A DNA stretch of 32,000 nt, from assembly GCF_049243625.1 (NCBI RefSeq), contig NZ_CP046975.1; one strand, given 5' to 3'. Positions 26,937 to 32,000 of the stretch are shown here, piece after piece (the first letter of the stretch is position 1; each line of letters opens with the position of its first letter). The DNA is from Corynebacterium amycolatum (lineage in GTDB: Bacteria; Actinomycetota; Actinomycetes; Mycobacteriales; Mycobacteriaceae). A program made the position numbers and the translations under genes. Under the pieces are notes generated by a model that was given only the letters and a program-made list of their open reading frames with translations, ran no database searches and was not told the origin of the DNA.

Positions 26937-27764
26937 CTACATCTTGCGCAGCGAAAACGCCGGTGCATTAAGGACTATGCGCCGCGCTAGATTCCAGTAA
27001 TCATGTTGAGCGTCTGTTACATGCTCGATTGAATTGCCCATGAACCTGGCCCAGATGCCAAGGCCATCGGGAAGTGAAGACGCGCCGATAAGCGGGGCAG
27101 TGTCGCTGTGTGGATAGTCCTGCCAAGAGGTAAGGACATCGTCGACAAGCGGTGGCGAACATATGACCCAGAGGTTTGCCCAGGCGCGGTAGTTGCCATG
27201 CGCGATGGGCGAGGAGAGGTCGCGTTTGCCGAGATAGTGAGCCTTTTCGATAAATGCGGGAACACTGTCGTGCGCGTGTAACTCTGCACGCAGATCAATC
27301 TCGGCGGCATCGTGGAGCTCTCCGTGAGCGACGCGACCAGCGGTAAAGCAGTCGCCGACAATTGCAGTAGCACCGGGGGAGACAGTCACCTTTGTGTGCT
27401 GGCGGAAGTGGCAATCACGCGAAGGAATTGCCGGGTCCGGCAGGTATTCGAGGACGGCATCCGGCTCAACCGTGAATTCAGTCAGCTGTTCGGCGTAGCC
27501 GCTGGTCATTGAGTGCACTCGAGTAGCCGCCTGAGAGGTGACAATCGCATGTGCGCCACTTCGAACCTGTATCCGCTGGCGAACATGGTCGCCCTGGGCG
27601 AGACCGCCGCCGGTGGCACGAATATAGACCACGTGGGCATCGGGGAAGGACGGGTCGGAATGGAGAATGCGCCCCAGAGACAGCGGTGCACGAACACGCC
27701 GGGTACCGGGGCCAGCAGGCAGAATCTCCAGGTCGAGTAAGCCGTCCTTGCCAGGTCGTAGCAT
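26937..27764 (-). CDS. ureD: urease accessory protein UreD/UreH
   Basis: ATGGGLAQGDHVRQRIQVRSGAHAIVTSQAATRVH matches the UreD core pattern (GG..GD...i.v..ga.a..T.QaatkV). The ATG lies 2 nt after the ureG stop. Confidence 0.8.
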   Translation of the reverse strand: MLRPGKDGLLDLEILPAGPGTRRVRAPLSLGRILHSDPSFPDAHVVYIRATGGGLAQGDHVRQRIQVRSGAHAIVTSQAATRVHSMTSGYAEQLTEFTVEPDAVLEYLPDPAIPSRDCHFRQHTKVTVSPGATAIVGDCFTAGRVAHGELHDAAEIDLRAELHAHDSVPAFIEKAHYLGKRDLSSPIAHGNYRAWANLWVICSPPLVDDVLTSWQDYPHSDTAPLIGASSLPDGLGIWARFMGNSIEHVTDAQHDYWNLARRIVLNAPAFSLRKM

Positions 27765-27766
27765 GG

Positions 27767-28402
27767 TTATGCCTGGTCAGAGGAGGAATCAACCGACGCA
27801 GACTTCGCCGCAGCCTCAATGAGATCGGCGAACTCCGCAATGCCGGAGCCGTCTAGACAATTGGTCAGCATGACCGGCTTGTCAGAGCGCACGGCAAGCG
27901 CATCAGTGTGCATCTGGTCCACATCGCAGCGGACATAGGGCGCGATGTCAATCTTGTTAATGACAAGAACATCGGAGTCCGTGATGCCAGGGCCACGCTT
28001 CTTCGGCATCTTCTGCCCCTCGGCGGTATCGAGCACAAAGACAAATAGGTCCGCCAGTGCAGGTGAGAAAGTCAGCGTGAGGTTATCGCCACCGGATTCG
28101 TAGAAAACAATGTCGATATCTGGGTGCTCCTCCAGCAACTCGGCGCTGGCCATGAGGTTCATAGTGGGATCATCGCGCACCGCAGTGTGTGGGCACGAGC
28201 CTGTCTCCACACCGATAATGCGCGAGGAGTCGACCACGCCGTCCAGCGCCTGCCGGATGTGATGAGCATCCTCTTGGGTGTAGATGTCATTGGTAATGAT
28301 GCCCGGTGTGAAACCACGGGAAATCAGCTCAGGTACGAGCGTTTCAATCAAGGCCGTCTTGCCGGAGCCGACTGGTCCACCAATGCCAACGTGAAAAACC
28401 AT
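27767..28402 (-). CDS. ureG: urease accessory GTPase UreG
   Basis: The P-loop GPVGSGKT, the CPH metal motif (ETGSCPHTAV), ESGGDNL and NKID. ATG at 28402 (alternative TTG 28408) with GAAGGA upstream. Confidence 0.93.
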   Translation of the reverse strand: MVFHVGIGGPVGSGKTALIETLVPELISRGFTPGIITNDIYTQEDAHHIRQALDGVVDSSRIIGVETGSCPHTAVRDDPTMNLMASAELLEEHPDIDIVFYESGGDNLTLTFSPALADLFVFVLDTAEGQKMPKKRGPGITDSDVLVINKIDIAPYVRCDVDQMHTDALAVRSDKPVMLTNCLDGSGIAEFADLIEAAAKSASVDSSSDQA

Positions 28403-28465
28403 TGTCAAAAATTCCTTCTTAATAGTTAACTTGCTAGTTGCTTGTCAGAGGCCAAAAGCCGAGCT

Positions 28466-29176: not shown

Positions 29177-29182
29177 CAGAGC

Positions 29183-31315
29183 CTAGAAGAGATAGTGCAG
29201 GCGCGTTAGCGGAAGCTCCTGGGCAGGCTCGATGCTGACGGGCTCGCCATCGACGGTGACCACATAGGTTTCCGGATCGACGTCAATCTTGGCCAGAGTG
29301 TTGTTTCGCACCATGTTTGCCTTGCCAATTCCGCGGCAGTCCTTTACCGGCAGAACACGGCTTTGCAAACCGAGCTCTTCCGGCACACCGGCATCAATTG
29401 CGGCCTGGGACATGAAGGTAATGCGAGTAGCCGTGAGAGCGGAACCGTAATTGCCGAACATATTGCGGAAATAGCAGGGTTCAGGAGTCGGGATGGATGC
29501 ATTGGGATCGCCCATTTGTGACCAGCAGATTACCCCGGAGCGCAGAACCACATCCGGTTTTGCGGCAAAGGAATCGATTGGCCACAGCACCAAATCCGCA
29601 ATCTTGCCGACTTCCACCGAACCCAGATAGTCATCAATTCCAGCGGAAATGGCGGGATTGATGGTCAGCTTCGCCAAGTAGCGCAGGACGCGTTCATTGT
29701 CATCGCCATTGGTTTCATCAGCACCGGGAAGTGGGCCGAGCTGGGCGCGGCAGTGATGAGCAGTCTGGAATGCGCGCGTGAAGGACTCGCCGACTCGTCC
29801 CATCGCCTGCGAATCGGAGGAGAAAATGGAAATGATGCCCATGTCATGGAGCACGGTTTCAGCTGCGATGGTCTCAGGTCGAACACGCGAATCGGCAAAA
29901 GCGACATCTTCCGGCACCGAGTGGGAAAGGTGATGACAGACCATCACCATATCCAGCAGTTCTTCGGCGCTGTTGATGGAGTAGGGCAGCGTCGGGTTCG
30001 TCGAAGCCGGCAGAACATTCGGAATCGCCGTGACCTTCAAAATGTCCGGGGCGTGACCGCCACCGGCGCCTTCAGAGTGGAAGGTGTGGATGGTCTGGTC
30101 ACCAATGGCTTTGCGCGTGTCCTCGAAGAAACCTGACTCGTTGAGCGTATCCGTGTGGATGGCCAGCTGAACGTCGTACTTATCGCAGATGTCCAGCGCA
30201 TTGTGAATAGTCGCAGGTGTCGCGCCCCAGTCCTCGTGAATCTTGAGCCCGGCAGCGCCAGCGAGTAGCTGTTCAACCAGCGCGTCCGGCTGACTGCCCG
30301 AACCCTTGCCCAGGAAACCAGCATTGACCGGCAGACCCTCTGCCGCGCGCAGCATGGTGTGAATATGGAATTGACCAGGCGTACACGTCGTGCCCTTTGA
30401 CCCCTCCGCAGGCCCGGTACCGCCACCGAAGAACGTCGTAATGCCGTTGGAGAGACCCTCTTCGGCCTGCTGCGGTGCCAGGTAGTGGATGTGCGTATCG
30501 ATGCCACCGGCCGTCAGCAGTCGATGCTCACCGGCAATAACCTCGGTACCAGCACCAATGACCAGGTCGGGGTGAACTCCGTCCTGCGTATGCGGGTTGC
30601 CCGACTTACCAATTGCGACAATCTTGCCATCTCGCAGACCCACGTCTGCCTTGACGACGCCCAGGAGAGCATCAACAATAATCGCGCTCGTAATAACCGT
30701 ATCGGGCGTGCCTTGTGCGCGAGTTGCCTGCGGATCTTGGGCCATGCCGTCACGGATGGACTTACCGCCGCCATAGATGGACTCGTCGCCGGGGAAGTTG
30801 GCCGTGTAGTCCTTCTCGATTCGAATGACCAGATTGGTATCCGCCAGCGGTACTACATCGCCGGTTGTGGGGCCGGAGAGCTCCGCGTATCTCGACGAGC
30901 TGATCGTCGTTTCCTCATCCGCGGCAACTGGCATCGGTTCTGCAGGCTCGTGCGCAAAACCGTAGTCGGCAATTCGCTGAAAGGCAGCTTCCCGAGTGGC
31001 TTCATCATCCAGCGGGCCCTCAGTCATCCCCGCGAAGCCGTGGATAATGCGGTCTCCACCGAAGTCGACCAGTGTGACCGTCTTGGTATCGCCGGGTTCA
31101 AAGCGCACTGCCAGGCCGGCGGGGATATTTAGGTGCATTCCCCAGGCCTGATGGCGATCAAAGCAAAGGGCCGCATTGGCTTCGAAGAAGTGATAGTGAG
31201 AACCGACCTGGATTGCGCGGTCGCCGGTATTGGCCACCTTTAGTCGCAGAGCGCGGCGGCCTTTATTCAGAACTATTTGTCGACAATCTGTGTTGTTACT
31301 CGGTTGCATCTGCAT
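29183..31315 (-). CDS. ureBC: urease beta-alpha fusion protein (UreB domain + linker + complete UreC)
   Basis: The N-terminus [40 protein letters not shown] is UreB. After a ~35-aa linker comes UreC with [44 protein letters not shown] and SSDSQAMGR. It is one uninterrupted 710-aa ORF. Confidence 0.9.
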
Positions 31316-32000
31316 CGATATTTCCTAGGTCAAACTCAGTGTGGACATCTGCGCTGTGATGGTGGTGATGATGGTTGTGACCATGACCGTGACTGTGCCC
31401 ATGCACGTGGCCGTGGTGATGATGACCGTGGCCATGCACGTGGCCGTGACTGTGTCCATGGCCGCCATCCTCCTCGCCGTGACTATGGGCATAACCGTGC
31501 TCATGATCGGCAAGTAATGCTGCCTCAATGCCGTCATCATCATGCGACTGCAAAAGATGCAGAGCGGTTTTAGCAGACTGGGAGATGGCCGTCGCCAGTG
31601 CAGTACTGGTGATGAGTGGTTTTTGATTCTCGGCTGTCTGCAAATCAGCGCGGATTACTGTGCTCCGACGGGTTGGGCGCAAGGACTCGTCGTCAAGCGT
31701 GGCTTTATACGGTGCCAGCGTCTGCGAGACGGATGGGTAGACATCGTCGAACGCGACCACTACATCGGCGCCAGAACTGTGCGTCCACGCCAGACGAGCG
31801 ATACGGAACAGCTCCGCGTCCGCGAACGGATCGATGGCAGCGGAACATATGACCGCGATATCGTCGGCCGAGGTCTCGCGCCGGAGCGTTGCGCGTAGAA
31901 ACGCCAGCGTGGTGGTGGCACCCAGCGGCGGTGCCGCGAGTGCAATGCGCACATTCGAGTGATTGCGCTTGAACCACTGACAAGTCTTGGCCGTGTCGGC
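31296..32000 (-). CDS. His-rich putative nickel metallochaperone (possibly a divergent UreE), 5' end outside window
   Basis: The frame is open to nt 32000 (the GTG at 31952 may be internal). I count about 28 His in the last ~85 residues ([35 protein letters not shown]). The stop overlaps the ureBC start by 20 nt. The weak resemblance to UreE (DPF...A.LAW.H) is not conclusive. Confidence 0.6.

Follow-up and report, generated by a model that had tools for sequence, protein, structure and literature searches.

Urease maturation is a textbook case of nickel delivery, in which UreD, UreF and UreG act on apo-urease and UreE donates nickel to the Cys-Pro-His site of UreG. To our knowledge, UreE is the sole established dedicated nickel donor of urease, apart from HypA/HypB cross-talk in Helicobacter. 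Here, we analyzed a 32,000-nucleotide (nt) stretch of Corynebacterium amycolatum DNA (RefSeq assembly GCF_049243625.1, contig NZ_CP046975.1), hereafter the window. It ends within a urease operon that contains no ureE and has an additional gene, here named ureX, between ureA and the genes for the other structural subunits. UreX is a His-rich protein of chelatase ancestry, and it probably functions in delivery of nickel.

It has been reported that urease-positive cutaneous corynebacteria carry either ureABC-ureEFGD or "ureAXBC and ureFGD" clusters (PMC10683109, BMC Microbiol 2023). The latter type, which lacks ureE, was found in urease-positive C. kroppenstedtii, C. pseudokroppenstedtii and C. 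bovis, and ureB and ureC were fused in two of the three ureAXBC strains (PMC10683109). The corynebacterial clusters of the ureE type lacked X, so that E and X were mutually exclusive in this small sample, and the fact that the ureAXBC strains were urease-positive implies that active urease can be made from X-type clusters in which ureE is missing (PMC10683109). The same study called X a "conserved hypothetical protein", with no mention of histidine, nickel or CbiX. The window locus shares with this type the genus, gene order, X slot and absence of ureE, and the homology of the published X to UreX is deduced from the identical arrangement within the genus; the strains belong to different species, the window locus being of the C. 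amycolatum group. Thus, the gene order, the ureBC fusion and the lack of ureE have already been published. What appears to be undescribed is that X derives from chelatases, has lost the catalytic site, carries an invariant His motif and holds a fixed position in urease operons across the phylum; its likely role as a nickel chaperone in place of UreE appears to be undescribed as well. Literature searches linking urease with CbiX, sirohydrochlorin or class II chelatases returned nothing relevant, and the term "ureAXBC" was found in no paper besides PMC10683109.

Ancestry and active site of UreX

UreX, a cytoplasmic protein of 309 amino acids (aa), descends from the two-domain CbiX/SirB class II (sirohydrochlorin) chelatases. 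This homology was visible only in profile-profile, large-library and fold comparisons. Searched alone against Pfam and NCBIfam (E≤10) and, with phmmer, against PDB sequences, UreX had no chelatase match and produced only His-tag noise; neither the ureX family profile nor one relative matched a chelatase among PDB sequences, and the window protein did not match Pfam CbiX (PF01903) at E≤10. A homolog search detected 68 relatives, of which the distant ones were named "sirohydrochlorin chelatase" or "CbiX" by NCBI. The PF01903 threshold was passed only by some Kitasatospora-type relatives (25-29 bits, cut-off 22).

Three lines of evidence carried the assignment. First, a tail-less profile of the ureX family was searched against 1.84 billion representative proteins, which revealed a discrete ureX family of 57 clusters when E was limited to ≤1e-30, or of 83 with a limit of ≤1e-10. 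Proteins at E 1e-9 to 1e-4 followed after a gap; five of these that were scanned with Pfam (P0171, P0172, P0174, P0185 and P0198) were bona fide two-domain CbiX, with PF01903 E-values of 1e-37 to 1e-44. Second, hhalign aligned the ureX family with CbiX proteins at 99.4-99.6% probability over 213-215 columns (E 2.5e-21 and 8.9e-24); for example, [16 protein letters not shown] paired with DPDANAEvfRvARLLWE. Third, the AlphaFold2 model of UreX (predicted local distance difference test, pLDDT, 83; predicted template modelling score, pTM, 0.77) contained two alpha/beta lobes in residues 1-242, followed by a disordered segment (residues 243-309; pLDDT <50 from residue 243). The best PDB matches of this model in Foldseek were CbiK (2xvx, E 2e-5), SirB (5zt7, E 1.5e-4; also 5zt8), DR2241 and HemH/ferrochelatases, with template modelling (TM) scores of 0.46-0.56. 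These library, profile-profile and fold matches together identify UreX as a class II chelatase descendant.

Class II sirohydrochlorin chelatases need a His pair, which corresponds to His14 and His79 in CbiX-L of Bacillus megaterium (PMC7689651). The window protein lacks this catalytic pair as well as the Cys motif for an iron-sulfur (Fe-S) cluster. We counted conservation in 85 unique members of the ureX family. The residue aligned with His14, at UreX position 15, was His in 69/85 members; the window protein has Val here, whereas Corynebacterium, Dietzia and the single Rhodococcus member have Pro or some other residue. The residue aligned with His79, at position 73, was Pro in the window protein and His in none of the members (0/85). 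No His occurred at the equivalent positions of the C-terminal domain of UreX (CSAAID, IRADL), and the CxxC Fe-S motif was absent from all members (0/85).

These observations bear on the possibility that UreX is a working sirohydrochlorin ferro-, cobalto- or nickel-chelatase merely housed in the operon. NCBI names of relatives, weak Pfam CbiX matches and the chelatase fold would agree with such an activity, and some true CbiX proteins also carry His-rich tails (PMC7689651). However, neither catalytic His is present in the window protein and the second is missing from the whole family, the genes annotated with Pfam at six loci that were looked up included no tetrapyrrole genes, and every one of 80 loci described below lies inside a urease operon; we regard a working chelatase as very improbable. 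We infer that UreX is not a tetrapyrrole chelatase and that it serves as a urease accessory protein.

Conservation in the family was concentrated elsewhere. Residues G14, P65, R70, R111, F134, A137, L139, R141, L145 and G232 were invariant. In addition, a C-terminal motif, A(D/E)HxHGYAHSH, was present, in which H247, H249 and G244 were found in 85/85 members, H243 in 84/85 and H241 in 78/85. This motif sits at the start of the segment modelled as disordered. All 85 members end in a His-rich tail and have between 7 and 30 His among their final 60 residues (see Table 1 for the window protein).

A fixed slot in urease operons and the gamma subunit

Distribution of ureX was assessed by scanning one genome per species in 185,579 species, which yielded 154 ureX relatives, and 80 loci were kept. 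In all of them (80/80), ureA, X, ureB, ureC, ureF, ureG and ureD followed one another on one strand, with no room for ureE. These loci span three classes of Actinomycetota (Actinomycetes, Acidimicrobiia and Thermoleophilia) and include Corynebacterium, Dietzia, Rhodococcus, Arthrobacter, Microbacteriaceae, Cellulomonas and Streptomyces/Kitasatospora. Four loci looked up individually, those of Corynebacterium sp., Homoserinimonas, Kitasatospora and a metagenome-assembled genome (MAG) syntenic with the window, all had ureX between ureA and ureB (4/4). Wherever examined, ureX occurs only in the ureA-ureB slot. In 85/85 unique loci, the distance from the ureA stop to the start of ureX was between -25 and +6 nt, and this proximity suggests that ureX is translationally coupled to ureA.

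Neighbors of these operons were also inspected. Urea transporters of the UT family adjoined 48 loci and a NicO gene adjoined one. Recurrent neighbors in the 85 flanks, which were partly inspected, were the UT urea transporter, a MarR-like gene and hydrolases; clustering of open reading frames (ORFs) in these flanks gave mostly spurious high-GC ORFs, with only the UT urea transporter clearly recurrent.

The position of ureX also explains an apparent anomaly of the window. A reading of the window from sequence only had pointed out that no ureA is present in 26937-32000, and had considered that the gene might lie upstream of the His-rich gene past nt 32000, that the enzyme might work without a gamma subunit or with one encoded elsewhere, or that the N-terminus of the His-rich gene might itself be a UreA domain. 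The absence within the window was confirmed: tblastn with the UreA of the locus over the 32 kb gave a best E-value of 0.079, in an unrelated stretch. No stop codon interrupts the ureX frame between 31296 and the last base of the window, 32000, and the gene is therefore cut by the window edge; the 218-aa ORF listed for it is only the portion after an internal GTG. We extended the sequence, a check which that reading had proposed, with a 2.47-Mb contig (L001, GCA_054653755.1) whose sequence matches window 19183-32000 (12.8 kb) at 100% identity. The full ureX gene, encoding 309 aa, occupies L001 9091-10020, and its DNA is 100% identical where shared with the window. Directly upstream, at L001 8782-9090, is a normal ureA of 102 aa (PF00547, E 5.8e-43; NCBIfam gamma-subunit equivalog NF009712, 147 bits, cut-off 123). 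Its stop abuts the ureX ATG, one base before it (...AAA TAG ATG...).

The first of the three options was therefore the right one, and the third is contradicted by the part of ureX beyond the window, which encodes a CbiX-like domain. With ureA immediately upstream of ureX, the case is reduced to a gene-order variant, as the sequence-only reading had itself allowed. Nothing favors a urease that lacks the gamma subunit or borrows one from elsewhere except the absence of ureA inside the window, whereas ureA heads this operon at a distance of 226 nt from the window end and is present at all 80 related loci; this explanation is refuted. The puzzle was an effect of the window edge, and there is no gamma-less urease here. 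The division of the structural genes that had been called odd is genuine, and it is conserved without exception (80/80 loci).

Two further observations concern the surroundings of ureX. A CbiX/SirB-like gene was detected in a Chthoniobacterales (Verrucomicrobiota) MAG (GCA_039915955.1, L092 1715-5713), in the order ureA, CbiX/SirB-like gene, ureB, ureC and ureF, with no ureG or ureD adjacent on the contig. This variant, of 289 aa, is more CbiX-like and scores above the Pfam CbiX threshold (E 1.6e-18); it has kept the DDG segment and a His-rich tail, but the GR motif and the two catalytic His are missing. In addition, a 564-aa membrane protein with ~11-12 hydrophobic segments is encoded divergently from ureA at L001 6820-8514 (minus strand), ~2.7 kb past the window end. 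It had only a sub-threshold NCS1 (Transp_cyt_pur) match and is a candidate urea or nickel permease; its homologs adjoin X-type urease operons in four other loci of the Corynebacterium clade (L005, L010, L013 and L015).

A proposed route of nickel delivery in the absence of ureE

No in-cluster ureE was present in any of the X-type clusters seen. At the window locus, no gene with a UreE domain was called in window 1-17.9 kb, in 19183-32000 or in the 9.3 kb beyond, and the full 309-aa UreX matched neither UreE_N nor UreE_C (Pfam and NCBIfam, E≤10). UreX, on the other hand, offers UreE-like features, namely a fixed His site, a flexible His tail and a conserved body, and for this reason we propose that it is a nickel metallochaperone. 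Judging from its sequence, UreX is probably a CbiX-derived urease accessory protein that serves as a nickel chaperone in place of UreE. In this mechanism, UreX would capture Ni(II) on the His motif and tail, and its conserved chelatase-fold body (invariant R70, R111, R141, D77 and D136) would provide a docking surface for UreG or urease. It would pass nickel to the Cys-Pro-His site of UreG within the complex of UreD, UreF, UreG and apo-urease, and in this way would do the job that UreE does in canonical operons. The published urease-positive strains with X and no in-cluster ureE (PMC10683109) lend this proposal independent support.

The chances seem about equal that UreX does or does not found a new class of urease maturation factor, a CbiX-derived nickel metallochaperone that has lost its porphyrin chemistry, retains the fold and the His-rich tail for gathering metal, and replaces UreE. 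Under that reading, its scope could well be, with the same even weighting, 154 of 185,579 species-representative genomes plus the clade of the window, mostly Actinomycetota with at least one lineage of Verrucomicrobiota.

Alternatively, UreX may be a nickel store or buffer, like Hpn/Hpn-2 and the His-rich tails of HspA and SlyD, which is co-expressed with urease and has no specific UreG partner and no role in replacing UreE. The His-rich tail, which is very variable in length and sequence, and the coupling of X to highly expressed structural genes are consistent with storage, and some actinobacterial ureases are generally known to mature without UreE. However, strict conservation of the folded body (with R70, R111, R141 and F134 invariant), a constant HxHGYAHSH motif and an unchanging operon slot across three classes would all be superfluous in a pure store, and we consider this function rather unlikely. 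A further possibility is an extra structural or assembly subunit, one that for instance tethers UreA to the fused UreBC, its histidines being incidental. Although the conserved slot of X between structural genes and its apparent translational coupling to ureA would suit such a subunit, ureX also accompanies separate ureB and ureC (73/90 loci scored) and hence is not tied to the fusion. Moreover, conservation in UreX is highest at a His motif within a disordered segment, a pattern characteristic of metal-handling proteins and not of scaffolds. An additional subunit is therefore improbable.

Several points weigh against the nickel-chaperone reading. The link between UreX and nickel comes from the His motif and the His-rich tail, both sequence features. 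The absence of ureE holds at the level of gene clusters, and Mycobacterium tuberculosis (ureABCFGD) makes active urease with neither ureE nor X, such that absence of ureE alone demands no replacement. Tight coupling between structural genes would likewise be compatible with a storage protein or a stoichiometric subunit. In addition, the first catalytic His is retained together with the GHES motif in 69/85 members, and residual ligand binding in the cleft is possible. Finally, the X of PMC10683109 was matched to UreX by gene arrangement.

If a degenerate chelatase fills the role of UreE, it would represent a second, independently evolved solution for nickel delivery, and would clearly illustrate how a protein for inserting metal into another protein can arise from an enzyme for inserting metal into a cofactor. 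The labels "sirohydrochlorin chelatase" and "CbiX", which are in wide use for this protein, would inflate predictions of B12 and siroheme pathways in actinobacterial genomes. Taxa with ureX include skin, urinary and veterinary corynebacteria. The ureX-type cluster occurs in clinically relevant urease-positive corynebacteria (PMC10683109), in which a UreE-independent nickel step could be a distinct target for urease inhibition.

The operon, its fused subunit and known systems

The operon consists of six genes, ureA-ureX-ureBC-ureF-ureG-ureD, on a chromosome of the C. amycolatum group and is flanked by rpoBC and rpsL-rpsG-fusA; window 26937-32000 represents its downstream five-sixths (Table 1). 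RpoC encoded in the window belongs to a 90%-identity cluster named Corynebacterium amycolatum / C. lactis. The sequence-only reading had placed the minus-strand ORFs X-ureBC-ureF-ureG-ureD correctly, and their identities were supported by Pfam and NCBIfam, which found the accessory genes ureD, ureF and ureG all present. It was also accurate in calling the cluster non-canonical, with ureB and ureC fused, no standard ureE and no ureE between the structural gene and ureF. The same was true of the junction sizes it gave: ureX and ureBC overlap by 20 nt, ureBC and ureF are 6 nt apart, ureF and ureG ~60 nt apart (57-63 nt, as set by choice of TTG or ATG as the ureG start), and ureG and ureD 2 nt apart. 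The UreG translation contains a P-loop, GSGKT, as well as the nickel motif Cys-Pro-His (ETGSCPH).

Table 1. Coordinates of the urease genes and of parts of UreBC and UreX (window numbering)
Feature	Position	Strand	Support or remark
ureD	26937-27764	minus	PF01774, E 7.5e-46; last gene of the operon
ureG (GTPase)	27767-28408	minus	TIGR00101, 229 bits (cut-off 204)
ureF	28466-29176	minus	PF01730, E 5.1e-25
ureBC fusion	29183-31315	minus	Single ORF, 710 aa; Pfam/NCBIfam
UreC (alpha) part of ureBC	29183-30940	minus	~aa 126-710 and stop; NF009686, 916 bits, aa 136-710
UreB (beta) part of ureBC	30941-31315	minus	aa 1-125; PF00699 aa 12-100, E 2.6e-40; NF009671 aa 12-122
ureX (His-rich gene)	31296-32000	minus	C-terminal 234 of 309 codons and stop
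ureX codons 250-309, variable His-rich tail	31299-31478	minus	23 His in last 60 residues
ureX codons 241-249, HEHGYAHSH motif	31479-31505	minus	Proposed nickel-binding site
ureX codons 1-75, outside window	32001-32225 (window-equivalent)		L001 contig
ureA, outside window	32226-32534 (window-equivalent)		L001 contig

Within UreBC, domains were assigned to Urease_beta (aa 12-100), the N-terminal part of Urease_alpha (aa 137-260) and Amidohydro_1 (aa 267-580), and a short, acidic, Pro-rich linker spans ~aa 123-135. An identical 710-aa UreBC was found on 9 independent contigs (NCBI, Logan and JGI), which shows that the fusion is not an assembly error. The translated alpha part contains all active-site motifs, Hx[33 protein letters not shown] and SDSQAMGR; we take these to be the nickel ligands, carbamylated Lys and catalytic His as in Klebsiella aerogenes urease. 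From its sequence, the urease looks functional and the active site of the fused chain intact.

The fusion was observed in 17/90 loci scored, or 11/80 among species-representative loci, and occurs elsewhere in other Corynebacterium MAGs, six Dietzia genomes and one Rhodococcus genome. Homologs retrieved with the beta-alpha junction were mainly short fragments of no use for counting, and fusions were tallied from the loci instead. All 13 distinct loci with fused ureBC (among L001-L091) had a non-His residue at ureX position 15, and no X retaining this His accompanied a fusion; three more loci without the His (L005, L012 and L069) had separate ureB and ureC. Fusion and loss of the position-15 His mark one clade, consisting of named Corynebacterium, Dietzia and Rhodococcus and of unclassified Actinomycetes MAGs.

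Antisense to ureBC codons ~186-286, a match to Rfam RF02514, "5_ureB_sRNA", was detected at window 30457-30759 (plus strand; 85.4 bits, gathering threshold 40). This family is the Helicobacter antisense small RNA (sRNA). The same antisense match was present in ureC of Homoserinimonas, Kitasatospora, Arthrobacter and another Corynebacterium; its alignment has many non-canonical pairs, and the sole promoter-like site is inside the match, not upstream. We rejected it as an sRNA gene, since it is most likely conserved coding sequence of urease alpha.

Regulatory elements were also searched for. The corynebacterial AmtR box (CTATN6ATAG, at most 1 mismatch) had 0 matches in L001 against 2.8 expected, and consensus scans of the operon for sigma-70 promoters and terminators gave counts not above those in shuffled sequence. 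A class-I glutamine amidotransferase gene (26116-26850, plus strand, 244 aa) is convergent with ureD and also adjoins the operon in a syntenic MAG (L010); the 86-nt spacer between the two genes contains a GC-rich inverted repeat without a T-run. Further away, at window 10024-10829 (plus strand), are four tRNA genes (Tyr-GTA, Thr-GGT, Met-CAT and Trp-CCA), which are clustered in the lowest-GC stretch of the window (GC 0.53). They lie between menaquinone-synthesis-like genes on one side and secE-nusG-rplK-rplA-rplJ-rplL-rpoB-rpoC on the other.

Compared to known fused ureases, the arrangement of the window enzyme is different. In Helicobacter (gamma and beta fused) and in eukaryotes (all three fused), adjacent subunits are joined and the gamma-beta-alpha order is kept, whereas in the window urease beta and alpha are fused, gamma is separate and ureX lies between the two genes; the gamma-beta-alpha order of the single-chain eukaryotic enzymes is preserved here too.

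Among chelatases, CbiX-L of B. megaterium and SirB of B. subtilis are homologous to UreX over both alpha/beta domains, and the C-terminal His-rich region of CbiX-L has been proposed to store and deliver metal (PMC7689651). However, UreX lacks the MxCxxC Fe-S motif, and its context is urease, not B12 or siroheme. CfbA of coenzyme F430 synthesis is a class II chelatase fold that handles Ni(II) (PMC7689651), but it is a small homodimeric enzyme that has four active-site His and uses sirohydrochlorin as the acceptor of nickel; in UreX two domains are fused and the four-His site is missing, and its organisms and operons have no relation to F430. Deinococcus radiodurans DR2241 (PDB 2jh3) ranked fourth among the Foldseek hits of the UreX model, and the closest matches to the UreX profile from outside urease operons were the DR2241-like proteins P0158-P0160 (444-465 aa; E ~1e-15). 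Their N-terminal half has an X-like chelatase fold, and they share with UreX a ...DDG... segment followed by histidines, but they also carry a conserved C-terminal extension of ~200 aa that UreX lacks. P0159 is located on a 2-kb contig (L093) with no neighbors.

UreE itself has no kinship with UreX in sequence or fold, the UreX model being a two-lobed chelatase fold, and the genes differ in position, ureE following ureC and ureX lying between ureA and ureB. Nevertheless, both proteins are encoded in urease operons, and both combine a conserved His metal site, which in UreX is a proposed one, with a variable His-rich C-terminal tail, which in the case of UreE is found in many species.

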